Shown here piece by piece: positions 5,271-54,224 of a stretch of 64,000 nt of DNA; position 1 is the first letter of the stretch; every line of letters begins with the position of its first letter. Position numbers and translations under genes: made by a program. Source of the DNA: Candidatus Omnitrophota bacterium (GTDB lineage Bacteria > Omnitrophota > Gorgyraeia > Duberdicusellales > Duberdicusellaceae); assembly GCA_016932855.1 (NCBI GenBank), contig JAFGCB010000025.1, positions 118,987-182,986 of the forward strand, in the 5' to 3' direction. The notes under the pieces are model-generated. The model searched no databases, was not told the origin of the DNA, and saw only the letters and a list, made by a program, of their open reading frames with translations.

Positions 5271-6323
5271 ATGCTGGATATAAAAAATTTGCTTAAATTG
5301 ACCATGGAAAAGAATGCTTCCGATTTACACCTTACGGTAAACAGCCCGCCGGTATTAAGAGTCGACGGCACCATCATTTTGGAAAATGATTTTGAAACCC
5401 TTAACACCGAAACCCTTAAGAATTTAATTTACAGCATTCTTACCAATACCCAGAAGGAAAAATTTGAGCGTGACAAGGAATTGGATTTTTCTTTTGCCCC
5501 CCAGGGATTTGACAGATACAGGGTCAATGTTCACTTGCAGCGGGGCAATGTTGAAGCAGCGTTCAGAAGGGTGCCGCGCTCAATACCTAAGCTCGGAGAT
5601 TTAGGTCTTCCTCAGATTAGCCAGGAGTTGGCTCGGAAGCCAAACGGCCTTGTCTTAGTTACCGGGCCCACCGGAACCGGCAAAAGCACGACCTTAGCGG
5701 CCATGATTGATTTAATTAACAACGAGCGGGAGTGCGTGATAATTTGCATAGAAGACCCGATTGAATTTATGCATAACAATAAGAAAAGCATTGTCAAGCA
5801 GCGGGAGATTTATTCAGACACTCATTCGTTTGCCGAGTCTTTAAAGAGGGCCTTGCGCCAAGACCCGGATGTAATTGTTGTCGGTGAAATGAGGGATTTA
5901 GAAACAATCGGAACCGCCCTTACTGCAGCCGAAACAGGGCATCTGGTTTTAGCCACTCTTCATACCCCTGATGCTCCTCAGACCATTGAGCGAATTATCG
6001 ACGTTTTCCCGCCTTATCAACAGAGGCAAGTACGTCTTCAATTGGGCGATTGTCTTCAGGGTATAATTTCCCAGTTATTGCTCTCGCGCATGGAAGGTAA
6101 AGGAAGGGTTCTGGCTACCGAAGTCATGATTGCCACTCCCGGTATACGAAATTTGGTAAGGGAAGGAGAAATAGCTCAGCTACCCACCTTAATTCAGACC
6201 GGGGCCCAGTACGGCATGAGGACCATGGATAAGTGCTTAAAAGAGCTTTACAAGAAGCGGATAATATCTTACGAAGCGGCGCTGAGTAAAGTGAAAAATA
6301 TTGAAGAATTTAAGATTCTATAA
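5271..6323 (+). CDS. pilT: type IV pilus retraction ATPase PilT-family
   Basis: 350 aa; N-terminus MLDIKNLL....ASDLHL....PP..RVDG, Walker A GPTGTGKSTT, Asp/His boxes (DPDVIVVGEMRDLET...A.TGHLV..TLHT) characteristic of PilT/PilU. Confidence 0.85.
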   Translation: MLDIKNLLKLTMEKNASDLHLTVNSPPVLRVDGTIILENDFETLNTETLKNLIYSILTNTQKEKFERDKELDFSFAPQGFDRYRVNVHLQRGNVEAAFRRVPRSIPKLGDLGLPQISQELARKPNGLVLVTGPTGTGKSTTLAAMIDLINNERECVIICIEDPIEFMHNNKKSIVKQREIYSDTHSFAESLKRALRQDPDVIVVGEMRDLETIGTALTAAETGHLVLATLHTPDAPQTIERIIDVFPPYQQRQVRLQLGDCLQGIISQLLLSRMEGKGRVLATEVMIATPGIRNLVREGEIAQLPTLIQTGAQYGMRTMDKCLKELYKKRIISYEAALSKVKNIEEFKIL

Positions 6324-7990: not shown

Positions 7991-8920
7991 ATGAGCGTTA
8001 AAAAAATATCAATAGTAGGAGCCGGCCAAGTCGGCAGTACCCTTGCTTTTTTACTTCTTATAAGGCGTCTCTGCAGCCAGATCACATTAGTTGATGTACA
8101 GCATGAGCTCGCCAAAGCCTGCGTCTTAGACCTGGAAGACAGCCGCTGGGTTTTTTCGGCTATCACAAACTTAACCTCAAGCAATAAGCTGCAAAGCTTA
8201 GCTTCTTCCGACATAATAGTCATAACTGCCGGCAAGCCCCGAAGTCCGGGAATGAGTCGCGCAGATTTAATCAAGGCAAATACCTCAACCATCCGGGATA
8301 TTTCCCGGGGAATTAAAAAGTTTGCGCCGGAAGCGCTGGTTATCCTTATCACAAACCCTTTGGATTTAATGACTTGCGTAGCTTTAAAAACTTCGGGTTT
8401 TTCGAAAGGCAGAGTTTTCGGAATGGGTTCATCTTTGGATTCAGCGCGCTTGGCGAATCTTATAAGTCAAAGGCTGAAATTAAACATTAAAGACATAAAT
8501 CCGGTTGTTTTCGGTGCTCACGGAAAAGACATGCTGGTTTCGGAAAATACAACTGTTCAAGCCGCCGGTTTAGCGAATTTTCTAAGCAAGAAAGATTTTT
8601 CACGGCTTAAGGAAGCCACCCTTAACCGAGGGGCAAGCATTGTTGGGCTGTTAAAAAAAGGAAGCGCTCGTTTTGGCCCGGCTGCGGCTTGTTTAGATTT
8701 AATCGAGGCTGTTGTTTTTGATCAAAAGAAAATAACATTTGCCTCGGTCTATTTAAATGGCCAATATTCAATTAAAGGCGTTTGCCTGGGCGTTCCGGTC
8801 GTGGTAGGCAGAGAAGGTATCGAACGCATCTTGGAGCTTAAGCTTTCCAAGCAGGAGAAAAATATCCTGATCCAAGCTGCCAGGACAATTAGAGGCCATT
8901 TAAAGCTGTTAAGAGATTAA
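7991..8920 (+). CDS. mdh: malate/L-lactate dehydrogenase family (LDH/MDH-like Rossmann)
   Basis: 309 aa; KISIVGAG.VG...AF NAD-binding N-terminus, ITAG.PR.PGM.R.DL, LDS.R motif of the LDH/MDH family. Confidence 0.75.
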   Translation: MSVKKISIVGAGQVGSTLAFLLLIRRLCSQITLVDVQHELAKACVLDLEDSRWVFSAITNLTSSNKLQSLASSDIIVITAGKPRSPGMSRADLIKANTSTIRDISRGIKKFAPEALVILITNPLDLMTCVALKTSGFSKGRVFGMGSSLDSARLANLISQRLKLNIKDINPVVFGAHGKDMLVSENTTVQAAGLANFLSKKDFSRLKEATLNRGASIVGLLKKGSARFGPAAACLDLIEAVVFDQKKITFASVYLNGQYSIKGVCLGVPVVVGREGIERILELKLSKQEKNILIQAARTIRGHLKLLRD

Positions 8921-8921
8921 A

Positions 8922-10010
8922 ATGACTTTCGAGCGAAAACATCTTAAAAATATAAAAAATTACCAGCCGGGAAAGCCCATCGAGGAAGTAAAACGGGATT
9001 TGGGTTTACGGCAAGTAATAAAGCTAGCTTCCAACGAGAGCCCTTTTCCGCCATCTAAAGCAACACGTAAAGCCCTTATCGAGAATATATGCAGAGTTAA
9101 TCGTTATCCTGATTCCCAAGGCTATTATTTAAAACGCAAGCTGGCCGCGAATTTAAAAGTTAAACCTGGCAATATAATTTTAGGTAACGGTTCTGACGAA
9201 CTTATTGTTTTGGCCCTGCGTGCCTTTGTCGATCCGGGCCAAGAAGTCATCGTCGGAAATCCTACTTTTTTAATCTATGAAATACAGGCTAAGGCTTGCG
9301 GGCTTAGGGTTGTGCGCAGCCGGCTTAAAGATTTCAGGTATGATTTGGATGACATAAAACGCAAGATTACAAAAAAAACAAAGTTAATCTTTATTGCCAA
9401 TCCCGACAATCCTAACGGGACCTATTTAAAGCATGAAGAAATTCAGAGTTTTTTAAAAGCGATTCCCCGGAAAGTTATTGTTTTCTTTGATGAAGCGTAT
9501 TGTGAATTTTCTCCTGAAGATTTTCCAAAAAGCATTAATTTCTTGAAGCAGGGCTATAATATGATTTTCACCAGGACTTTTTCGAAGGTTTTCGGCTTAG
9601 CCGGTTTACGAATCGGCTATGGAATTGCCAAGCCTGAATTAATCCGGTCTTTGGATAAAGTCCGCGAACCTTTCAACGTCAACTCTTTGGCGCAAGCGGC
9701 GGCTTGTTCCTGCCTGAACCAGAAAAACCAAGCCAGACAAACAGTCCGGTACATCAATAAAGAAAAATATTTTTTCTACGAAGGCCTGGGGAACCTTAAT
9801 CTGAGATTTGTAAAAAGCGCCACGAATTTTATTTTAGTAGATTTAGGTAGGATTTCTTCGAAGGCAGTTTTTTCACGGCTTCTTAAAAAGGGAATAATCG
9901 TGCGCGAAATGAGCTCCTGGGGGTTTAAAAACTTTATCAGAGTTACCGTAGGAACCCATTCCCAGAATCGCAGATTTTTAAAAGCTTTAAGCTTAAGCCT
10001 TAACCATTAG
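8922..10010 (+). CDS. hisC: histidinol-phosphate aminotransferase
   Basis: 362 aa; class-II aminotransferase; YPD..., [16 protein letters not shown]-lysine region. Confidence 0.82.
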
Positions 10011-10024
10011 AGGAGGAGATAGCT

Positions 10025-11044
10025 ATGATTATAGTGTTGAAGCCCAAGGCCACCGATCAGGAGATTGATTACATAATCTCCCGTATCGAGAAACTGGGTC
10101 TTAAAACCATGGTTTCTAAAGGAGTCGAGCGCACGATCATCGGCGTAATCGGCCCGGAAGACATATTAAGATCCCATCCCCTGGAGGTATTTCCCGGTGT
10201 GGAAAAAGTAATGCCGGTTTTAGCTCCTTATAAATTGGTTTCGCGTTATTTTAAGGCTGAGCCTTCGGTTATTGAGATTACTAAAGATGTAAAGATCGGT
10301 ACAAAAAAAATCATAATAATAGCCGGGCCTTGCTCTATCGAGTCAAAGGAACAGTTGCTGGACGTGGCCAAAAGGATAAAGGCGGCCGGTGCTACAATTA
10401 TACGCGGTGGAGCGTTCAAGCCCCGGACGTCTCCTTATAGCTTTCAGGGTTTGGGCAAAGAAGGTCTGGAAATCCTTAAGGCGATATCCCAAGAGACAGG
10501 CTTGCCTACTATCACGGAAGTAATGGATACGCGTGATGTCGAATTAGTTTCGAAATATACCGATATATTGCAGGTTGGTGCTCGAAATATGCAGAATTTT
10601 AACCTACTTAAAGAAATCGGCCAGACGAAGAAGCCGGTAGTGTTAAAGCGAGGCCTGAGCGCGACCATTAACGAGCTACTTATGAGCGCAGAGTATATTC
10701 TCTCGGGAGGTAATTTCAACGTCATCTTATGCGAGCGGGGCATTAGAACATTCGAAGATGCAACTCGCAACACTTTGGATTTAAGCGCCATCCCCATAAT
10801 AAAGCAATTATCCCATCTTCCGGTAATAGTCGATCCTTCTCACGCCACCGGTAAATGGAATTTAGTTTCTCCGCTGTCGAAGGCCGCGGTCGCCTGCGGA
10901 GCTGACGGTCTTTTAATCGAAGTTCACCCTCAGCCCGAAGAAGCTCTTTCCGACGGCCCGCAGCAGCTATTGCCGAAAAAGTTTGTTGCTCTTATGGGAG
11001 AATTACAAAAGGTGGCCTTAAGTGTTGAGAGAACTTTTGACTAA
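10025..11044 (+). CDS. aroF: 3-deoxy-7-phosphoheptulonate (DAHP) synthase, AroA(G)/KDO8PS-like type with N-terminal regulatory domain
   Basis: 339 aa; N-terminal ferredoxin-like/ACT-type domain (MIIVLKP.A....I..I...I...G) followed by a KDO8P-synthase-like TIM barrel (IAGPCS.ES.EQ, ..[16 protein letters not shown]). Confidence 0.8.
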
Positions 11045-33999: not shown

Positions 34000-35298
34000 T
34001 TAAGGCAGGCTTATGCTGCGGGTAAAGGCTTTGACTACTTCCGGGTCAAAGTGCGAGCCGGATTCCCGGCTGATTATTTTTAAGGCTTTTTTAAATTCAT
34101 AGGCTTTTCGATAAGGACGGTCGGAAACCAAAGCTTGAAAGCTATCGGCTAAGGCCACAACTTTAGCTTCAATAGGGATTTGATTATTTTTAAGTCCGTA
34201 AGGATAGCCATGGCCGTCGATTCTTTCGTGGTGGTAGAGGATAGACGGTATTATCTTAATAAGGGGGTGCAAGGGCCGCAATATTTCTGCGCCGATAACC
34301 GGATGTTTCTTTATTTTTTTAAACTCTTCTGCGGTAAGCTCGCCCGGTTTTTGCAAAATTGATTCCGGAATGCCTACTTTGCCCAGATCATGCAGCATCG
34401 CCGCATATCTGATTATTTCTAATTGTTGTTCTTCAAGATTAAGTTTGCGCCCGATGACCAAAGCTATTGTTACTGTTCTTTCGGTGTGTTCTGCCGTATA
34501 GAAATCCTTGGCTTTGATTGCGGTTGCAAAGGCGATGATTGTTTCGAGGGTTGTACGGTCAAGCATCGTAGTTAGCTGCAGGATTTTATTTTTTAGTTCA
34601 GTAACTTCGTGTTTGCCATTTGCATTGTCCTCGCTGGCCGCGGTGTTTTCCTTTAATTTTCGCAACGTGATTACTTTATTATTTTTCGCCTTTGAGCAGT
34701 TAAGGCATTGATTTAAGATCGAAAGCAGTATTTCTTCATTGGTTCCGTCTTCAGGATAAGTCACAAGCCCTATGCTTATTTGGAGACTTATCTTTTCTTT
34801 GCCGAAATATCTGAATTTAAGCTTTTCTTGAATCCGGCCGGCAAGCCTTGTCGCCTCTTCCTTGGAAGTATAGCTGCATATTACGATGAATTCATCTTCC
34901 TTTGATCTGGCTAGAATATCTCCGGTACGCAATTCGTTTTTTAAGAAACAAGCAAATTCGCGCAAGATTACATCTCCGCGCGATACGCCATAGATTTTAT
35001 TGATATTTTTAAATAGTTCTATGTCAATTTTTAGCAAGGATACCGAAAAATTATGCCTTTCGGCCTGAGTCAGGCTTTCCTTAAGGCGAAAGGCTAAATA
35101 TTTGGAGTTGTATAAGTCGGTTATAGTATCGATGAACGAAGACCGGGCCAGACGTTTGTTTAATTGCGCGATTTGGGCATTTTTTGAATTAAGCCTAAGT
35201 TTTAAATAAAATGCCCAGAATAAAACAGGAAATAGCGCTAGCCCTGTAAAGGGCAAGGGTTTTGAAAAAGTCTTTAGAAACTGGAGAAAATAGTCCAT
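34000..35298 (-). CDS. membrane-anchored degenerate-GGDEF / HD-GYP domain protein (putative c-di-GMP phosphodiesterase)
   Basis: 432 aa; N-terminal TM, GGDEF-like fold with the motif degenerated to SKEDEF, C-terminal HD-GYP (HDLGK ... HHERIDGHGYPYGL). Confidence 0.8.
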   Translation of the reverse strand: MDYFLQFLKTFSKPLPFTGLALFPVLFWAFYLKLRLNSKNAQIAQLNKRLARSSFIDTITDLYNSKYLAFRLKESLTQAERHNFSVSLLKIDIELFKNINKIYGVSRGDVILREFACFLKNELRTGDILARSKEDEFIVICSYTSKEEATRLAGRIQEKLKFRYFGKEKISLQISIGLVTYPEDGTNEEILLSILNQCLNCSKAKNNKVITLRKLKENTAASEDNANGKHEVTELKNKILQLTTMLDRTTLETIIAFATAIKAKDFYTAEHTERTVTIALVIGRKLNLEEQQLEIIRYAAMLHDLGKVGIPESILQKPGELTAEEFKKIKKHPVIGAEILRPLHPLIKIIPSILYHHERIDGHGYPYGLKNNQIPIEAKVVALADSFQALVSDRPYRKAYEFKKALKIISRESGSHFDPEVVKAFTRSISLP

Positions 35299-41532: not shown

Positions 41533-42024
41533 ATGCTAAAGAAGAAGGAAGAGGAGAAAGTGCTGGATGTAAACGCCAGTATGCAGGGAAGTCTTGTATT
41601 TTCCGACCCGGTAAATTTACGCATCAACGGAAAGTTCGACGGGGACCTTAAGACAAAAGGCATACTGCAGGTCGGCCAATACGCAGAGGTTCGGGCAGAC
41701 ATACACGGAGAAGTAATCATAATTTCCGGGAGAGTAAGAGGCACAATTCTTGCTGATAAAAAAATATGTTTGCTTTCCACCGCAGTGGTGCAGGCTGACA
41801 TATCGGCCCCGGCTTTAGAGGTAAAAGAGGGGGCAATTTTCGAAGGCCGCTCCAGCATGATCGCCGATACAATGGAACTTAAAGACATTTCTCGTTATCT
41901 GGATATCGAAGAAAACAAGATTCTCGAATGGGCTTCAACCGGCAAGATTCCGGCAATCCAAGACGGCAGCAAGTGGATATTTGAGCGAAAAAGGATTGAA
42001 AGCTGGGTAAAAGACACGAAATAG
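41533..42024 (+). CDS. bactofilin-domain protein with C-terminal HTH_17 (excisionase/MerR-like) helix-turn-helix
   Basis: 163 aa; bactofilin beta-helix repeats (INGKFDGDL...G.L.VG..A.V.ADI.GEV.I.G.V.G.I.A...I.L..TA.V.ADI.A..LEV.EGAIFEG...M), then ...LDIEENKILEWASTGKIPAIQDGSKWIFERKRIESW matching the HTH_17 pattern. Confidence 0.7.
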   Translation: MLKKKEEEKVLDVNASMQGSLVFSDPVNLRINGKFDGDLKTKGILQVGQYAEVRADIHGEVIIISGRVRGTILADKKICLLSTAVVQADISAPALEVKEGAIFEGRSSMIADTMELKDISRYLDIEENKILEWASTGKIPAIQDGSKWIFERKRIESWVKDTK

Positions 42025-44213: not shown

Positions 44214-44331
44214 AAGGATAGAAGGGGTGAAAGGTGCCCCTCCCTCTGTAACCCTTGTATCCCTTAAAACCCTTGCAACCTTTAAAGTTGTTTCGCCATC
44301 AAACGCATTACGCGTTACGCATAACGAAATT

Positions 44332-44405
44332 GGCGGGATAGCTCAGGCTGGTAGAGCAAACGGCTCATACCCGTTCTGTCGGTGGTTCAAGTCCACTTCC
44401 CGCCA
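44332..44405 (+). tRNA. tRNA-Met (anticodon CAT; could alternatively be lysidine-modified tRNA-Ile2)
   Basis: GGCGGGA/TCCCGCC acceptor stem, GCTC..GAGC D stem, AACGG/CCGTT anticodon stem with loop CTCATAC, GGTGG-TTCAAGT-CCACT T arm, discriminator A; CCA not encoded. Confidence 0.85.
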
Positions 44406-44417
44406 TTCTGTTTCGCC
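44364..44417 (+). repeat. direct repeat copy 1 (3' half of tRNA-Met plus 12 nt), candidate attL-like site
   Basis: 54 nt; 52/54 identical to 45986-46039. Confidence 0.8.
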
Positions 44418-44811: not shown

Positions 44812-45918
44812 ATGAAGACTGTAAAAAAAATTTTGGGAATGGTGATTATTTTGGTTGGCATATGGAGTCTTTGGCCTTATCTTGGAGATGCTCTTTGGGG
44901 TATTGCGGGCGGCGCAGAAGACATGCTGGCTACAATCGTTGCTATAATTTTATTTTTATTGAACGTTGGACTAATTTTAGTTGGCGTCCAGATTTTCATG
45001 AATAAGATTAAAGTCTATACTTACGTATTTTTGATACTTGGACTGATAGCCTTAGTCCCTTTTTATAAACAGCTCTATTTAGAGTATATGAGTCCAATGC
45101 GTAAAGTGGCACGAGGAGATGTAGAAGGCGCACTTAAAGAATGTACTCGAATTATAGATTCTGAAGAAAAGGGTTCAGCGTATGTAATGAGAGGGAGAAT
45201 TTATTACGGTCTCGGCGAATATAAAAAAGCCCTTTCAGACTTCGCGGCTGTAGATGGTTGGATTAAATATAAATATGCAATCTTTACCCATATTAGGTTA
45301 AATGATTTTGAAAGTGCGTTGCGGACCTGTGATGCGTGGGCGAGGGTTATGCCACGGCTTGCGAGCGTTGCATATTGTTATAAAGGGGATTTGTATTATG
45401 CGCAGGGAGATTATGAAAACGCAATAGAAGCATATAGAAAACATATTGAGTTATCGAAAATACCTAACGACGATAGATCGTGGGTTGAAGATGGTGCAAA
45501 GGTCGAAGATTACATACGTTTATCAACTTGTTATGCGAAACTGGGAAATTTTTCTTTAGCTGAAGAATACCTTGATAGGGCCTTTACTCTAGCAAGTGAT
45601 TTTAATAAAGATTTATCAATAAATGAAAGCGCTGACCTTACAAGCGTATTGGTTGCAAGAGGAAATCTTTATGCTTATATTGGTAAGCTCGATGAGGCAA
45701 AAGCCCAGTATCGTCAGGCTGTTCAAAGGAACGATTCTAAATTTACGCAGAGAGTTATATGCAAGAAAGCCTCCAGCAAGATATTAAAAGAAATGGGGGT
45801 GCAGTGCTACCTTAATGCGCTTGATGAGAAGAAGGAGAGGGATCCGAGCCGAGCGATAGATCGAGATATGAGAGATTTAATGCCAAGCTTCCCATCCTAT
45901 AAATGGATATGCAGGTAA
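44812..45918 (+). CDS. membrane-anchored TPR-repeat protein (cargo of tRNA-flanked insert)
   Basis: 368 aa; 3 N-terminal TM helices then several TPR-like helical repeats (YYGLGEYKKAL, YYAQGDYENAIEAY, LYAYIGKLDEAKAQY). Confidence 0.6.
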   Translation: MKTVKKILGMVIILVGIWSLWPYLGDALWGIAGGAEDMLATIVAIILFLLNVGLILVGVQIFMNKIKVYTYVFLILGLIALVPFYKQLYLEYMSPMRKVARGDVEGALKECTRIIDSEEKGSAYVMRGRIYYGLGEYKKALSDFAAVDGWIKYKYAIFTHIRLNDFESALRTCDAWARVMPRLASVAYCYKGDLYYAQGDYENAIEAYRKHIELSKIPNDDRSWVEDGAKVEDYIRLSTCYAKLGNFSLAEEYLDRAFTLASDFNKDLSINESADLTSVLVARGNLYAYIGKLDEAKAQYRQAVQRNDSKFTQRVICKKASSKILKEMGVQCYLNALDEKKERDPSRAIDRDMRDLMPSFPSYKWICR

Positions 45919-45985: not shown

Positions 45986-46039
45986 CTCATACCCGTTCTA
46001 TCGGTGGTTCAAGTCCACTTCCCGCCATTCTGCTTCGCC
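45986..46039 (+). repeat. direct repeat copy 2 (partial tRNA-Met 3' half), candidate attR-like site
   Basis: ctcatacccgttctatcggtggttcaagtccacttcccgccattctgcttcgcc; weaker homology to the tRNA flank continues ~60 nt further, and a 16-nt perfect palindrome aagccatatatggctt lies at 46056-46071. Confidence 0.8.
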
Positions 46040-46452: not shown

Positions 46453-46588
46453 AGGATTTATCGCCGAACGTCAAAAACAAAAGTATAAAGGTTTTTTCTA
46501 ACCCTAAGTATTCTGTATTTGATACGGGATGGGTTAGGGCATACTTAACTAAAAAAAAGAAATAAAGTCAATTAAGGACGAAGCTATG

Positions 46589-46980
46589 CTATAAATTTAG
46601 CGCGCCTACGTCCTTCGAGAGTTGTTTGTATTTCTGAGAGTATGTCTTTCAAGCTGAAGGGCTTGTTAATAAAACAGCTTGCTCCTTTTTTCAAACCTGT
46701 TTTCAAATCTTCCTCGGACGCTAAGGCAGTCAGCATTATTTTCGATATTTTTCGGGTTTATTGTCTTTTTTAAGACGCTGGCTGGCCTCGAATCCGTTAA
46801 TTTCAGACATAATAACATCAAGGATTATCAAATCGGGGTTTTCGCTTGCGGCTTTTTTAAACAATCAGCGCCGTTAGATACAGCAAGGATATCATAACTT
46901 TCTATTTTAAGCATTTTACCCAATAAATCGATTATTGCCGCTGCGTCATCGACCAAAATATTTTTTATCCTTTCCGACAT
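46589..46980 (-). pseudogene. CheY-like response-regulator receiver gene interrupted by two frameshifts
   Basis: Minus-strand translation gives MSERIKNILVDDAAAIIDLLGKMLKIESYDILAVSNGADCLKK... then, after a -1 shift in an A6 run, ...AASENPDLIILDVIMSEINGFEASQRLKKDNKPE..., and after a second shift ...IMLTALASEEDLKTGLKKGASCFINKPFSLKDILSEIQTTLEGRRRAKFI; together a complete REC domain. Confidence 0.65.
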
Positions 46981-47308
46981 CGCTTAATACCGTCAGCGTA
47001 GTATATCACAACAAAACATAATCACTTCCACATTTTAAGTCGCCTAAGCGCCGGGGTTAGTTCCTTTTTTTTCGCCGGCACTGTAGGATTTTTTATCAGT
47101 ACTGCCAAATTTCTGCTTTATTTTTAATCAGCAATGGGTTATTATAAGATTACAAGGTGGCAGTATGGACGTCGATAAAATAAAACTTTTTTATTCTTTC
47201 GGTATTTAATCTCCGTTGGAGCAGGCGAATTTACCGATTGATACTTTTTCTTTTTGAAATATAAAGATAAAAACCTTTTTTGGATAAAAGGAAAATAGAA
47301 TAAATTTT

Positions 47309-47692
47309 ATGCCAGAGGACCGAAGAAGATTTGAACGCGCGAAATTTCCTATTGTTGTCAGATGGCGATGTTTGACAACTTTCGCTGAAGGCGACGCGTC
47401 TTTGCCGGATTTGGCGGAAGACATATCCGCAGGAGGCGTCTGCCTGGTGTTGTATGACGCATTGAAAGTGGGCGATGAAATCGAGCTTCAATTTTCATTA
47501 CTAGGTAAAGGAAACATTCAAACAAAGGCAAGGGTTGTTTGGGTCAGGCAAGCCCAAATGTTTAGCGGCGATTACAGGATGGTGAAATACTATGCCGGCC
47601 TTGAATTTATCGAAATGAGCCAGAAAGATAAAGAATTCATTAATCAGATCATCGCTCGATTAAAAAGAAATCCCGAACAGGCACAGGCTTAA
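47309..47692 (+). CDS. PilZ-domain c-di-GMP-binding protein
   Basis: 127 aa; RRRFER (RxxxR) followed by DISAGG (DxSxGG) PilZ signature. Confidence 0.8.
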   Translation: MPEDRRRFERAKFPIVVRWRCLTTFAEGDASLPDLAEDISAGGVCLVLYDALKVGDEIELQFSLLGKGNIQTKARVVWVRQAQMFSGDYRMVKYYAGLEFIEMSQKDKEFINQIIARLKRNPEQAQA

Positions 47693-47706
47693 ATGTAGGA
47701 GCAAAA

Positions 47707-48336
47707 ATGAAAAATGTTATGCGAACAGTTTTTGTTGTTCTTTTCCTAAGTTCTGGCGTTATCTTCGCTTTGGCCGAGACCGTTGCTGAAAAATCCTCTT
47801 TACCGGATATTTCAATCGAGGGCATTCTTTTTGATGAAAACAATCCAATGGTTGTAATCAACGGCAGGACTTTACGGATAGGCGATAATATCGAAGGGGC
47901 TGAAATAGTAGAGATTACCGAAAACGGGGTAAAGTTTGACTTTCAGGGGAATTTCTATACAAAGACGCTCAATGTCGGAAAGCCCGGTCCGGTGATACGC
48001 AAACAGGAAAGTTTTTTTGAGAAGGTTAAGAAAAGTTTGAGTAAATTCTTTACCAAAGAAAAAAGCCCTACGGAACAAATAAACGCTTCGAAAGTATCGC
48101 GGTTTCAAAGACACAAGGAACTGGCTTACCGCTATTCGCGGGATGCTCAAAAAAGATCTCGTTCTGACCCCGTGGGGGCTGCGGCCTTGTATGGAAAAGC
48201 GCACCGGGAAGCTCAGATGGCTTACAAGGCTGTTCCCGGTAAAGGTAAATATGCCGATATTGAGAGGAAGAAAATGTTTAACTTAGCCAACGATTGCTTG
48301 GAACAGCAGGAAGCTTGTCAAAGATTAATGCGGTAA
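47707..48336 (+). CDS. secreted protein with PilP/GspC-like beta domain and basic C-terminal tail
   Basis: 209 aa; signal peptide (MKNVMRTVFVVLFLSSGVIFALA), segment L..ISIEGILFDENNPMVVINGRTLRIGDNIEGAEIVEITENGVKFDFQGNFY resembling the GspC-HR/PilP small beta domain, then a K/R-rich tail; 14 nt after PilZ. Confidence 0.4.
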   Translation: MKNVMRTVFVVLFLSSGVIFALAETVAEKSSLPDISIEGILFDENNPMVVINGRTLRIGDNIEGAEIVEITENGVKFDFQGNFYTKTLNVGKPGPVIRKQESFFEKVKKSLSKFFTKEKSPTEQINASKVSRFQRHKELAYRYSRDAQKRSRSDPVGAAALYGKAHREAQMAYKAVPGKGKYADIERKKMFNLANDCLEQQEACQRLMR

Positions 48337-48345
48337 ATCTACTCG

Positions 48346-48624
48346 TTGTTACAGAACTTAAGCAAGGAGGGTTATATGTTGGAAAATATCCCTTATGGCG
48401 AATATCTCGCCGGTTACATCGGAAATATAGTTTTGGTTTCATATTCAATGGCTGCGATGTTCAGTATCTTAGTTTTGGTTGTTTTGGAGATGACCGGGGA
48501 TAAGCTGAACCGCTTGGTGAAACGCATTTTTAGCGTAATCGCCTGGTTTAGCTTAATTTTTATTTTGTCCTACTGGGTCGGGAGTATTATACATACTTTA
48601 ATTGCCGCAGGCGGAAAAAGCTGA
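48346..48624 (+). CDS. small membrane protein (2 TM)
   Basis: 92 aa; two hydrophobic helices; GGAGG ribosome-binding site upstream. Confidence 0.45.
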   Translation: MLQNLSKEGYMLENIPYGEYLAGYIGNIVLVSYSMAAMFSILVLVVLEMTGDKLNRLVKRIFSVIAWFSLIFILSYWVGSIIHTLIAAGGKS

Positions 48625-48688
48625 ATGGCCGTCGTTGTATTGTTAATAAACTTTCTTTGATAGTCTAGGGTTTATTCTTTATCACAAA

Positions 48689-49012
48689 ATGTTTAAATTT
48701 AAAAAAACGGTCCGATTTTACCCTTTTATTTTTATTTTGGCCGCCAGCTTTGCCTTTGCTGAAAACGACAAAAAAGAGGATGTGCCTCCAGGAATGGAAG
48801 TAATTGAGGTGGGACAAACCAAAGTTGTTGTGCCTAAAGATTCGCAAATCCGTAAAGAAGGCGGATTGATAATACTTGAAAGCCCCAATCAATACGTGGC
48901 CAGGCGGCTCGTAGATTTTGACCAGCGTCTTTCGCTTCTAGAAAAACAAACACTAGAGCTTAAAAACCAGATTGGCCAGTTAGAAAAAGCTCTGGAAGAC
49001 GTAAAAGAATAA
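48689..49012 (+). CDS. small secreted coiled-coil protein
   Basis: 107 aa; signal peptide (FIFILAASFAFA), C-terminal heptad-like LLEKQTLELKNQIGQLEKALEDV. Confidence 0.45.
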   Translation: MFKFKKTVRFYPFIFILAASFAFAENDKKEDVPPGMEVIEVGQTKVVVPKDSQIRKEGGLIILESPNQYVARRLVDFDQRLSLLEKQTLELKNQIGQLEKALEDVKE

Positions 49013-49045
49013 CCGCTAAAGAAACAAACTAAATAAGGAGTTGTA

Positions 49046-49519
49046 ATGTCTGAGGATTTAAACAAGGAGAACATCGCTGCTGATTCTAGCAAGGATATTT
49101 TGAAGCGCCTTCTTGAAAATATCCAAAAATTTGTGACCAGGGCCAGTCTCCACACGGGATATTCCACACGAACCATGTCCTTTAACGTCTTTGGCCAGCA
49201 AACCTGGTGGCATATGGGAAATATCGGAGGAATGAATGTAGCCCAAGTCGTATGCAGATGTGAAATCACCAATATAACAAACAGCTTTGACGTAAGGCCG
49301 ATAAGCGCTATTTTAAAAGCCACGAACACTTACGGGATAGTTGGCGTAAACTCTGAAAACGGCGTTGTGTCTGTGCATTGGACTCTTCAGGCCGGTTTCG
49401 AATTTTGGGTGACCAAGCCGTTTAAGAAAAAAAGTCAGAGTTTTATATCGGATATTCTGGTGTACGATCAGTTCAGCAATCGTCATATAATAAAAGGAGT
49501 TAAATTTGAATACCGTTAA
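49046..49519 (+). CDS. hypothetical protein, no recognisable domain
   Basis: 157 aa; AGGAG ribosome-binding site upstream; Trp/Gly-rich core; no TM or signal peptide. Confidence 0.45.
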   Translation: MSEDLNKENIAADSSKDILKRLLENIQKFVTRASLHTGYSTRTMSFNVFGQQTWWHMGNIGGMNVAQVVCRCEITNITNSFDVRPISAILKATNTYGIVGVNSENGVVSVHWTLQAGFEFWVTKPFKKKSQSFISDILVYDQFSNRHIIKGVKFEYR

Positions 49520-49619
49520 AATTCGCCTTTTATTGATACCGAAATTATACTTTAACGGTAAAATTCTTTCGTTTAAAAATTGAGTTTTTTGTGTTATTAT
49601 TACATCAACAAGCTAAGCT

Positions 49620-52221: not shown

Positions 52222-52602
52222 ATGGGCGATCTTTTCGATAATACAGAAAATTTATTTGTTAAATTAGCTAAATTTGAAGAGGTTTATCATCAGCTTAAAG
52301 ATGCAATTATCGAATGGACCGAGAAAGGTCAAGGCGTATATCATTGGACAGACGCCGATTCTAAGCAGTACGAACATAAGGCAAGCATGAAGCAAAACGG
52401 AGCCCTCATAAGATGCAGTAATCCTCGGTGCCGCCAGGGCGGATTCAATCTGGAACAGGAGCTTTCCTCGTTAGCCGTGGGCAAACAGAAAAAAATTAAG
52501 AATTTTAAAAAATGCATGGGTTTCGAGCAGGCAACGCCCGGTCAAAACCGGATAAACTGTCTGAACGGCATAGATTATAAGATAACCCTTGTTTACAAAT
52601 AA
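52222..52602 (+). CDS. hypothetical Cys-cluster (zinc-ribbon-like) protein
   Basis: 126 aa; CSNPRC...C...C arrangement; no other motif. Confidence 0.4.
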   Translation: MGDLFDNTENLFVKLAKFEEVYHQLKDAIIEWTEKGQGVYHWTDADSKQYEHKASMKQNGALIRCSNPRCRQGGFNLEQELSSLAVGKQKKIKNFKKCMGFEQATPGQNRINCLNGIDYKITLVYK

Positions 52603-52629
52603 AAGTTTCATTACCTTGATAGTTTTTCA

Positions 52630-52968
52630 ATGCAGGAAAGACGAAGATTCGTAAGAATACCTGAACGGCTGGCTATAGCCTATAAAATTCTGCCCAGCGA
52701 CAAACCAGCCGGGTTTCTTACCAAAAACATAAGCCAGGCAGGATTAAGGTTTTTCGTTCATGATTTCGTTAAACCCGCTAGCCTTTTGGAAGTAAGGGTT
52801 AGTTTTGAAAAAGTACGCTTTTCTTTGGAAGCGATTGCTCGGGTTGTCTGGGTTGAAAAAGAGGCTCATAGCGAGCGCTATGAAGTCGGCGTGGAATTTG
52901 CAACAATATCGAAAAAAGCTGCGTCTCAGCTTATTTCCTACATTGAAACAATCCTGAAAACCAAGTAG
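52630..52968 (+). CDS. PilZ-domain c-di-GMP-binding protein
   Basis: 112 aa; RRRFVR (RxxxR) and NISQAG (variant DxSxGG). Confidence 0.75.
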   Translation: MQERRRFVRIPERLAIAYKILPSDKPAGFLTKNISQAGLRFFVHDFVKPASLLEVRVSFEKVRFSLEAIARVVWVEKEAHSERYEVGVEFATISKKAASQLISYIETILKTK

Positions 52969-53036: not shown

Positions 53037-54224
53037 ATGGAGCAAACAAAAAGAATTCTTCTTATTTGCAGGGATAAAAATCTTAACGAAATTATCTATT
53101 TTTGCCTTGAAGGCTGGGGATATGAGGTGTGCATACTGGCCGATGAAGTCATATTCCTTGAGCAAATTAAAAAAACAGAACCGGATTTGTTGATTGTTGA
53201 CTTTCCGCATCCTTATAAGGAACGCCTGAATTTTTGTCAGCAAATAAAGAACGATTTCATCACTAAATCGATTCCGGTTGTCGTATTAATTGACAGGCGT
53301 CAGCTGCGCAAACATCTTCTTTCTCTGGAGCATGGGATAGACGACTATCTTTTAAAGCCGCCTGACCCCCTCGATCTAAGGGTTAGAGTCGAGATGGCCA
53401 TGCGACGCACTCAGTATAGTTTTTACACTAACTCTTTGACTAATCTTCCCGGGGGAAGGATAATCGAAGAGATTCTTAAAGAAAAAATTTCGAAAAAAGA
53501 GAAATTTTCTTCAGCCCATATTGATATCGATAATTTTAAGTATTTTAATGACCGGTACGGTTACCTGAAAGGGGATCGAGCAATAACACAAACTGCATAT
53601 ATTTTGCATCAGACAGTGCAACGCTTCGGCACGAACAAAGATTTCATCGGCCATATCGGAGGAGACGATTTTGTTTTCATAACGTCGCTTGATGAAGAAG
53701 AGGCTGTGGCTTCGGAATTTATCCGGCAGTTTGATCGCCTTATCCCTTTGCATTATTCAAAAGAGGATCGCGTACGCGGTTATATTAATATCGAGGATAG
53801 ATTAGGGGCTGAGCGTAAAATACCCCTTATGAGTGTTTCAGTCGCAATCGTAAATAATAGAGGTGCGGACTTTAGCAATACTGTTCAGATAAACGAAGCT
53901 TTGGCCAGTCTTAAATCCTATCTTAAAAAAATGCCCGGAAGTAATTTTATGGTCGACAGAAGATTGGCGGATAAGGGAATAAATAAAAGGTCCGAAGCCC
54001 AGACATTTTTGAAAGCTTGCCGGCGGAAGGTTTGTCGAGGAAAGAACACCAAGCCCTTGGGGCAAATCCTGCTTGATAAAGGGATACTGAACAGCGATAC
54101 TCTTGAAAAAAACCTGGATATACATTTTCGACGAGGTCTTCCTTTAGGCGAAGTCCTAAAAGACAGCGGCGTAATCGATGGCCGCGAGCTTGCAGCTGTT
54201 TTATCCTGGCAGCAGCGATCTTAA
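53037..54224 (+). CDS. receiver - degenerate GGDEF (GGDDF) - MshEN-like c-di-GMP-binding domain protein
   Basis: 395 aa; REC-like N-terminus (LLIVDF phospho-Asp region), GGDEF fold with GGDDF in place of GG[DE]EF and no RxxD I-site, C-terminal tandem MshEN motifs PLGQILLDKGILNSDTLEKNL.. and PLGEVLKDSGVIDGRELAAVLSWQ. Confidence 0.7.
   Translation: MEQTKRILLICRDKNLNEIIYFCLEGWGYEVCILADEVIFLEQIKKTEPDLLIVDFPHPYKERLNFCQQIKNDFITKSIPVVVLIDRRQLRKHLLSLEHGIDDYLLKPPDPLDLRVRVEMAMRRTQYSFYTNSLTNLPGGRIIEEILKEKISKKEKFSSAHIDIDNFKYFNDRYGYLKGDRAITQTAYILHQTVQRFGTNKDFIGHIGGDDFVFITSLDEEEAVASEFIRQFDRLIPLHYSKEDRVRGYINIEDRLGAERKIPLMSVSVAIVNNRGADFSNTVQINEALASLKSYLKKMPGSNFMVDRRLADKGINKRSEAQTFLKACRRKVCRGKNTKPLGQILLDKGILNSDTLEKNLDIHFRRGLPLGEVLKDSGVIDGRELAAVLSWQQRS

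Follow-up and report, generated by a model that had tools for sequence, protein, structure and literature searches.

We examined a window of 64,000 nucleotides (nt), by which we mean the whole stretch of DNA analysed here, from contig JAFGCB010000025.1 of a Candidatus Omnitrophota bacterium, and looked specifically at a block of five small genes (g1 to g5, positions 47309-49519) that opens with a PilZ gene and is followed by a single-domain receiver gene (g6). A previous interpretation made from the nucleotide letters (the sequence-only reading) had proposed that the five genes constitute an output system for the second messenger cyclic diguanylate (c-di-GMP) acting on the cell envelope. This proposal was not borne out, as the searches made detected no synteny in its support and the positive evidence consists of adjacency alone. 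We tentatively regard the block as a lineage-specific mosaic operon and not as a conserved system; g2 would serve a secretin machine as an accessory adaptor encoded away from it. The proteins are deposited at NCBI as MBN2120162-MBN2120167 (g1-g5 and the receiver, locus tags approximately JW734_03795-03805) on a contig of 184,839 bp, and identical DNA was also assembled from run SRR13394437. The features of the locus are as follows.

47238..47265, plus strand: TTGATA-16 nt-TATAAA, promoter candidate of the sigma-70 type lying 44 nt before the start codon (ATG) of g1
47309..47692, plus strand: g1, single-domain PilZ protein, predicted cytoplasmic, 127 aa, MBN2120162.1
47707..48336, plus strand: g2, signal peptide, HR domain and basic three-helix bundle, 209 aa, MBN2120163.1
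48376..48624, plus strand: g3, membrane protein with two transmembrane (TM) segments, 82 aa, MBN2120164.1 (open reading frame from 48346, 92 aa)
48689..49012, plus strand: g4, coiled-coil protein with signal peptide, 107 aa
49046..49519, plus strand: g5, helix and immunoglobulin (Ig)-like beta-sandwich, predicted cytoplasmic, 157 aa, MBN2120166.1
49620..50006, plus strand: g6, single-domain receiver, Pfam Response_reg (E-value 3e-19)

The five open reading frames (ORFs) on the plus strand were recovered exactly where the sequence-only reading had placed them. Log-odds scores of codon usage, calibrated on 28 long genes from the window (0.23 +/- 0.06 per codon), were positive for g1-g5 in the annotated frame only (0.14-0.28 per codon), and the five genes therefore look real and native. 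The intergenic gaps of 14, 64 and 33 nt given earlier were correct, but the 9-nt gap between g2 and g3 presupposes a TTG start for g3. The ATG at 48376, which lies behind AAGGAGG, is the better start and is also the one chosen in the Logan gene call (82 aa), and it leaves 39 nt between the two genes. A scan of the window found no terminator-like site on the plus strand within the block. The TTGATA-16-TATAAA pattern upstream of g1 occurs once in the window against 0.04 occurrences expected by chance, and is a candidate promoter judged by its letters; it was missed by the consensus promoter scan because that scan demands T at position 6 of the -10 hexamer. As the genes are tightly spaced, with no internal terminator and a promoter-like site upstream, g1-g5 are likely to be co-transcribed. 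A putative intrinsic terminator after g5 (10-bp stem, 26-nt loop, z-score -0.5) was not significant and was discarded. The receiver gene expected downstream of the block was confirmed; it is separated from g5 by 100 nt, with promoter-like matches at 49572-49600, and is probably a transcription unit apart from the block. Except for a second PilZ gene, no paralogues of g1-g5 were detected in the window; receiver genes related to g6 are present.

The first gene carries both motifs attributed to it, RxxxR as R6RFER10 and DxSxGG as D37ISAGG42. Its product matches Pfam PilZ (PF07238) at an E-value of 2e-14 with 54.2 bits (cut-off 22.5) over profile positions 1-101 of 102, besides the PilZ paralogue domain TIGR02266, and it is 26% identical to the second PilZ protein of the window (52630-52968). 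By these signatures g1 is predicted to be a canonical cytoplasmic c-di-GMP receptor. A scan of the genome collection with exact 8-mer probes, which are of limited sensitivity, returned no relatives of g1. Stand-alone PilZ adaptors such as the YcgR-type proteins, MapZ and PlzA are known, and g1 has the complete PilZ signature in common with them. These adaptors act on cytoplasmic partners such as the flagellar motor, methyltransferases or ATPases. The gene next to g1 encodes a predicted periplasmic HR-domain protein; among the papers searched, none was found that links PilZ with a periplasmic protein of the GspB/GspC type.

This neighbour, g2, had been read as a protein with a signal peptide, a small beta domain resembling those of PilP and GspC and a basic tail, and our searches agree on all three parts, the tail being a three-helix bundle. 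The Sec signal peptide is of the AXA type (aa 1-23, cleavage at ALA/ET) and is followed by an acidic HR beta domain (aa ~32-87, isoelectric point 4.2), a linker and the basic bundle (aa ~121-208), the tail having an isoelectric point of 10.1. Residues 32-82 match Pfam T2SSB marginally, with 30.5 bits against a threshold of 28.4, and CdsD_C falls just below its threshold. When used alone, g2 gave only noise against PDB sequences, and a word-index homology search returned g2 itself only. A profile built from g2 and 45 domain relatives (A4) matched GspB (4WFW, E-value 4.6e-4) and GspC (7OIO, 3.4e-3) in the PDB, along with a non-significant match to 2LNV (0.083). The single-sequence AlphaFold2 (AF2) model of the mature protein is reasonably confident (pLDDT 78). 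In this model the HR domain is a small beta-sandwich that superposes on a solved HR domain, and a three-helix bundle, modelled very confidently, occupies the C-terminal ~90 residues; its likeness to MIT/TPR-like bundles is generic only. Taken from sequence and model, g2 appears to be a periplasmic HR-domain protein having the order of parts of GspC and not the architecture of GspB.

The company kept by related domains was surveyed in metagenomes. The degenerate probe [IV]NG[RKQ][TVI][LYV][RK][IVE]GD retrieved 80 metagenome loci with relatives of the g2 domain; the probe alignment (A3) held five hand-written variants that were used solely to set the pattern, and tblastn against the actual g2 domain upheld every probe match. 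Across 81 related ORFs the domain nearly always stands at the C-terminus, preceded by a TM anchor, and a median of 13 residues comes after it; only 2 of the 81 have a tail of at least 80 residues, as against 122 aa in g2. GspA(ExeA)-GspB gene pairs accounted for 15 of the 80 loci. Six long loci with the best matches (L013, L014, L017, L020, L025 and L071) encode domain relatives, among the closest recovered, that are 32-43% identical to g2 over ~50 aa, and share the gene order PilM-PilO-[HR]-secretin-T2SSE(MshEN)-T2SSF, so that the HR protein occupies the PilP slot. Since the domain relatives sit in the PilP slot and the corresponding partners are absent from the window, g2 is taken to be an orphan, a secretin-adaptor paralogue with an altered architecture. 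An excisionase-like helix-turn-helix (HTH) gene was also observed upstream of pilM in these pilus/secretion clusters.

Pilus and secretion machines are well known to be under c-di-GMP control, and ATPases with an MshEN domain are an established c-di-GMP input to type IV pili and to the type II secretion system (T2SS). In the clusters with HR genes in the PilP slot, MshEN on the T2SSE ATPase was confirmed by Pfam in L017 (5825-7543) and, judging by ATPases of ~570 aa, is presumably present in L013, L014, L020, L025 and L071. The c-di-GMP input to clusters of this kind would go through the ATPase. A jackhmmer search of the 80 HR-domain loci found no relatives of g3, g4 or g5, and placed a PilZ gene near the HR-domain gene in two loci (L039 and L036), on the opposite strand in both. 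This frequency is about chance level because PilZ genes are dense, two being present in this 64-kb window and small pilZ genes being reported as common in Omnitrophota (10.1101/2023.11.21.568195).

Comparison of g2 with known secretin adaptors shows both likenesses and differences. Its domain order (hydrophobic N-terminus, HR domain, helical module) is like that of the coiled-coil class of GspC (XcpP-like); the structural reference for GspC is the HR domain bound to GspD N0-N1 from enterotoxigenic Escherichia coli (PDB 3OSS). Unlike GspC, however, g2 has a cleavable-looking AXA signal peptide in place of a clear signal anchor, and it ends in a basic three-helix bundle instead of a PDZ domain or long coiled coil. 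Nor does its gene accompany gspD/E/F/L/M, the 64 kb being devoid of T2SS genes. The best sequence-family match of g2 is GspB/OutB/ExeB (T2SSB, PF16537; PDB 4WFW). Canonical GspB has a TM anchor, a long linker and a C-terminal domain, and its gene often follows the gene for the GspA/ExeA ATPase, whereas the g2 domain stands at the mature N-terminus before a 122-aa tail and no ExeA-like gene is found in the window. GspB proper (ExeB/OutB/PulB) was therefore rejected as an identity for g2 on the grounds of its N-terminal domain, long tail and gene context. The HR proteins of the PilP slot have the T2SSB/CdsD_C signature in common with g2, but they are TM-anchored proteins of ~150 aa with the domain at their end, encoded directly before the secretin gene, while g2 is an orphan with an added helical bundle adjoining a PilZ gene. 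As to mechanism, the data support a single point: g2 appears equipped for docking onto the N0 domain of a secretin and carries an extra interaction module.

The two following genes also encode envelope proteins of the kinds foreseen by the sequence-only reading. The two-TM mini-protein g3 has hydropathy segments at aa 14-42 and 46-79, joined by a basic loop of ~12 aa (GDKLNRLVKR), and by the positive-inside rule its predicted topology is N-out/C-out. The secreted coiled-coil protein g4 has an AXA-type signal peptide (AFA/EN), a short beta-rich segment and a coiled coil at aa ~70-107, in whose heptad register 10 of 11 a/d positions are hydrophobic. Profile and structure searches on the products, as had been suggested for them, recovered the HR domain of g2 and a family for g5 but no family for g3 or g4; Pfam, NCBIfam, PADLOC and PHROG gave no match to g3, g4 or g5. 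Against PDB sequences g4 yielded coiled-coil noise only (E-value ~1), and exact 8-mer probes found no relatives of it in metagenome contigs. We regard g3 and g4 as lineage-restricted envelope proteins.

The last gene of the block had been described as lacking a recognisable domain, which holds for the curated libraries, but it is not an orphan and belongs to an undescribed family. Exhaustive phmmer with g5 recovered 96 cluster representatives, two of which (P0003 and P0059) are long repeat proteins judged to be spurious. The family has the conserved motifs WWHMG, PAMQ, VTNIT and DQFGNxH and no Pfam match. With the family alignment, AF2 modelled g5 at pLDDT 92 as an amphipathic helix (aa 8-32) and a seven-stranded Ig-like sandwich (aa 44-156). 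The helix is hydrophilic in g5 itself (maximum 19-aa hydropathy 0.23), and an N-terminal TM helix is present in 32 of 60 family members. In these, lysine and arginine residues number 0.41 before the helix and 3.81 after it, and as the positive charge lies almost wholly after the TM helix, the sandwich is placed in the cytoplasm. The family is accordingly described as widespread, uncharacterised and usually membrane-anchored, with a cytoplasmic beta-sandwich. A type IV or archaeal pilin identity, raised by fold matches to archaeal pilin and archaellin, was rejected in view of the topology, the lack of a hydrophobic alpha-1 and TM-scores below 0.5. Some longer members of 380-580 aa (P0031, P0042, P0064 and P0095) fuse the TM helix and sandwich to a conserved C-terminal region of ~220 aa, which has a CGRRVGGLGS motif and no match in Pfam, PADLOC or PHROG.

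Less exhaustive searches recovered little of this family. The word-index search returned g5 only, the family profile search nine proteins only, and a scan of the genome collection for the close g5 subfamily nothing; tblastn of g5 against phages and plasmids and an IMG/VR scan with the family were empty, and PADLOC and PHROGs models matched neither g1-g5 nor five family members. The eleven genomic contexts that we read, mostly on short contigs, are unrelated to one another. In L003/L004 an integrase gene precedes genes for a PilZ-containing protein and a receiver. The other contexts feature an Anthrax_toxA-like gene, a DUF6998/HNH/methylase/Vsr set, a Zn-ribbon/FMN_bind set, a methyltransferase, GatB/LysR and, next to a large serine recombinase, an island of ORFans; the rest are short contigs. 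Recombinase or restriction-modification genes accompany the family in 3 of the 11. In L003 (positions 8001-10674, JGI Ga0307475_10000162) the distant family gene comes directly after a phage-type integrase gene. Elsewhere the members of the family behave as stand-alone accessory genes, and g5 most likely acts independently of the block.

The block as a whole does not recur. At 90% identity each of the six proteins (g1-g6) forms a cluster of its own. In the collections searched, by word index for g2 and by exact 8-mer probes for g1 and g4, neither the whole block nor any of its gene pairs turned up again. With tblastn, no relatives of g1-g4 were detected in the g5-family loci compared, and for three further g5-family contexts the gene tables show no PilZ or T2SSB neighbours. 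The gene-neighbourhood comparison that the sequence-only reading had named as a check on itself thus showed no conserved synteny as far as the genes could be tested.

Our preferred explanation, which we hold tentatively, is that the genes were brought together in this lineage and that g2, possibly with g3 and g4, plugs as an accessory adaptor into a pilus or T2SS-like secretin encoded elsewhere in the genome. The HR domain of g2 would dock onto the secretin N0 domain in the way of GspC/GspB/PilP-type proteins, and its C-terminal bundle might recruit or mask a partner at the pore. The PilZ protein g1 would be a regulatory input at most, the ~12-aa loop of g3 being the only cytoplasmically exposed piece of g2-g4, and g5 would act independently of g1-g4. 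Conserved T2SS-like loci are reported across Omnitrophota (10.1101/2023.11.21.568195), and a PilT-like ATPase gene in the window (5271-6323) makes it likely that a pilus system is present. Several observations weigh against this explanation. There is no secretin, PilM/N/O or GspD/E/F gene within the 64-kb window and hence no docking partner in sight, the structure model of g2 rests on one sequence, and searches of limited sensitivity found no homologues of g3 and g4. Short intergenic gaps point to co-transcription without proving it. The 14-nt spacing of g1 and g2 could mark a real PilZ-g2 pair that a survey of distant relatives would not see. Besides, the genes that come after the g5 homologue in L003 encode a 335-aa protein, which matches PilZ weakly, and a receiver, an echo of this window and the sole other place where the g5 family and PilZ/REC genes occur together.

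The setting of the block bears on its origin. The region of ~44.4-54.6 kb is variable and rich in signalling genes, and is flanked by housekeeping genes, with gatA/gatB, tsaD and larC-like genes upstream and gcvH, lipoate genes, tilS-like, ftsH, folP and cdaA downstream. A direct repeat of 54 nt (96% identical; 44364-44417 and 45986-46039) copies the 3' half of a tRNA-Met gene (44331-44406) and brackets a 1.6-kb insert that holds a gene for a TPR membrane protein only (44812-45918) and no integrase; the arrangement looks like the scar of a tRNA-targeted integration. The block itself was rejected as part of such an element, the att-like repeat ending at 46039, 1.3 kb upstream of g1. On the minus strand, a response-regulator receiver gene at 46584-46980, which runs divergently to the promoter region of g1, has been split by frameshifts or stops into three pieces of ORF and is probably a pseudogene.

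A fortuitous juxtaposition seems to us unlikely, though it is a serious rival. Functionally unrelated hypothetical or signalling genes would then have gathered in a variable stretch close to a tRNA gene, the targets of the PilZ protein would be distant, and g2 would be a paralogue in decay or with a new function, unconnected to its neighbours. Its supports are the lower guanine-cytosine content of 44.4-54.6 kb (0.37-0.40, against 0.42-0.47 in the flanks), the att-like tRNA-Met duplication, the frameshifted receiver accompanied by several ORFs without a family, and the singleton status of all block proteins with no detectable synteny. These have to be set against same-strand gaps of 14-64 nt, which usually mean operons, the native codon usage, and the envelope targeting of g2, g3 and g4 alike, which is more coherent than random; moreover, the block lies outside the att-bracketed insert.

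That all five genes form one dedicated c-di-GMP output system, in which the PilZ protein would sense c-di-GMP and alter an envelope property by way of g2-g4 (and g5), as first proposed, we now consider improbable. The shared strand, the tight spacing without internal terminators and the intact PilZ binding motifs are in keeping with it, as are the many c-di-GMP genes of the neighbourhood (a second PilZ, a REC-GGDEF and a GGDEF-HD-GYP gene) and the distant g5 homologue of L003 adjoining a PilZ-containing protein and a receiver. However, neither the block nor any gene pair recurred in the searches made, g5 relatives stand alone in varied contexts, and PilZ genes turned up near HR genes about as often as their density by itself predicts. 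Where HR relatives sit in pilus clusters, the c-di-GMP element detected is MshEN on the ATPase and not PilZ. The compartments do not match either, with the PilZ protein and g5 in the cytoplasm, g2 and g4 in the periplasm and the g3 loop as the sole possible bridge. This genome abounds in PilZ genes, with two in the window besides its GGDEF and HD-GYP genes, which makes a chance adjacency of PilZ and envelope genes plausible. We nevertheless retain some small belief in the proposal because the searches used could not test synteny fairly for genes as divergent as g2-g4. A reduced version, to which we give similarly little credence, would make g1-g4 an accessory module in which the PilZ protein acts through g3 on periplasmic g2/g4 to gate or redecorate a secretin, with g5 independently defining a new and widespread family of membrane-proximal beta-sandwich proteins of the cytoplasm. 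Very unlikely, finally, is an origin of the block as leftover cargo of a mobile element or of a defence island, in which g5 (perhaps also g3 and g4) would have a role in phage exclusion or a similar conflict. In favour of this, genes of the g5 family adjoin a tyrosine integrase in L003, a large serine recombinase within an island of ORFans in L093 and HNH/DNA-methylase/Vsr genes on the P0006 contig; the one g2-like protein of similar architecture (L026) appears, by a reading of its N-terminal sequence, to follow type I restriction-modification genes; and the block is 1.3 kb from the tRNA integration scar. Against it, neither g1-g5 nor the g5 relatives match PADLOC or PHROGs, g5 and its family drew blanks among phages, plasmids and IMG/VR, and the region shows no integrase and a native codon usage.

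Other genes of the window were also noted. It is dense in c-di-GMP genes, encoding two PilZ proteins, a REC-GGDEF and a GGDEF-HD-GYP protein. The second PilZ protein (112 aa, motifs intact) belongs to a gene pair at 52222-52968 on the plus strand, where it follows after 27 nt a 126-aa Cys-containing ORF without a family, making another small pair of an unknown gene and PilZ. The REC-GGDEF protein (53037-54224, plus strand) has a GGDDF signature, and its ~55 C-terminal residues hold two tandem LGxxLxxxGxI...L...L stretches that look MshEN-like by eye; Pfam made no MshEN call there, and tblastn against the T2SSE N-terminus gave an E-value of 0.005 only. The GGDEF-HD-GYP protein (34000-35298, minus strand) has a degenerate KEDEF site with intact HD and GYP motifs and, from these motifs, is probably a c-di-GMP phosphodiesterase. 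The PilT-like T2SSE ATPase (350 aa, plus strand) is a lone gene with no other pilus gene nearby, its neighbours being aconitase-family, isocitrate/isopropylmalate dehydrogenase and lactate/malate dehydrogenase genes. The 163-aa product of 41533-42024 (plus strand) is an unusual fusion of a bactofilin domain to a C-terminal DNA-binding domain, HTH_17, of the excisionase type.

These results document an orphan protein in which an HR domain is joined to a three-helix bundle, and correct the NCBI name "GspB" for MBN2120163.1, whose architecture differs. They also flag, through g5, a reasonably widespread family with a confident fold model and conserved motifs that has no Pfam entry. If the link between PilZ and the HR domain is real, c-di-GMP would reach the periplasmic side of a secretin machine via a small set of adaptors, and a g1-g4 module, if true, would be a second c-di-GMP route to a pilus or secretion machine besides the MshEN domain of the ATPase. 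Such machines are thought to be used by Omnitrophota in a host-dependent or predatory lifestyle.

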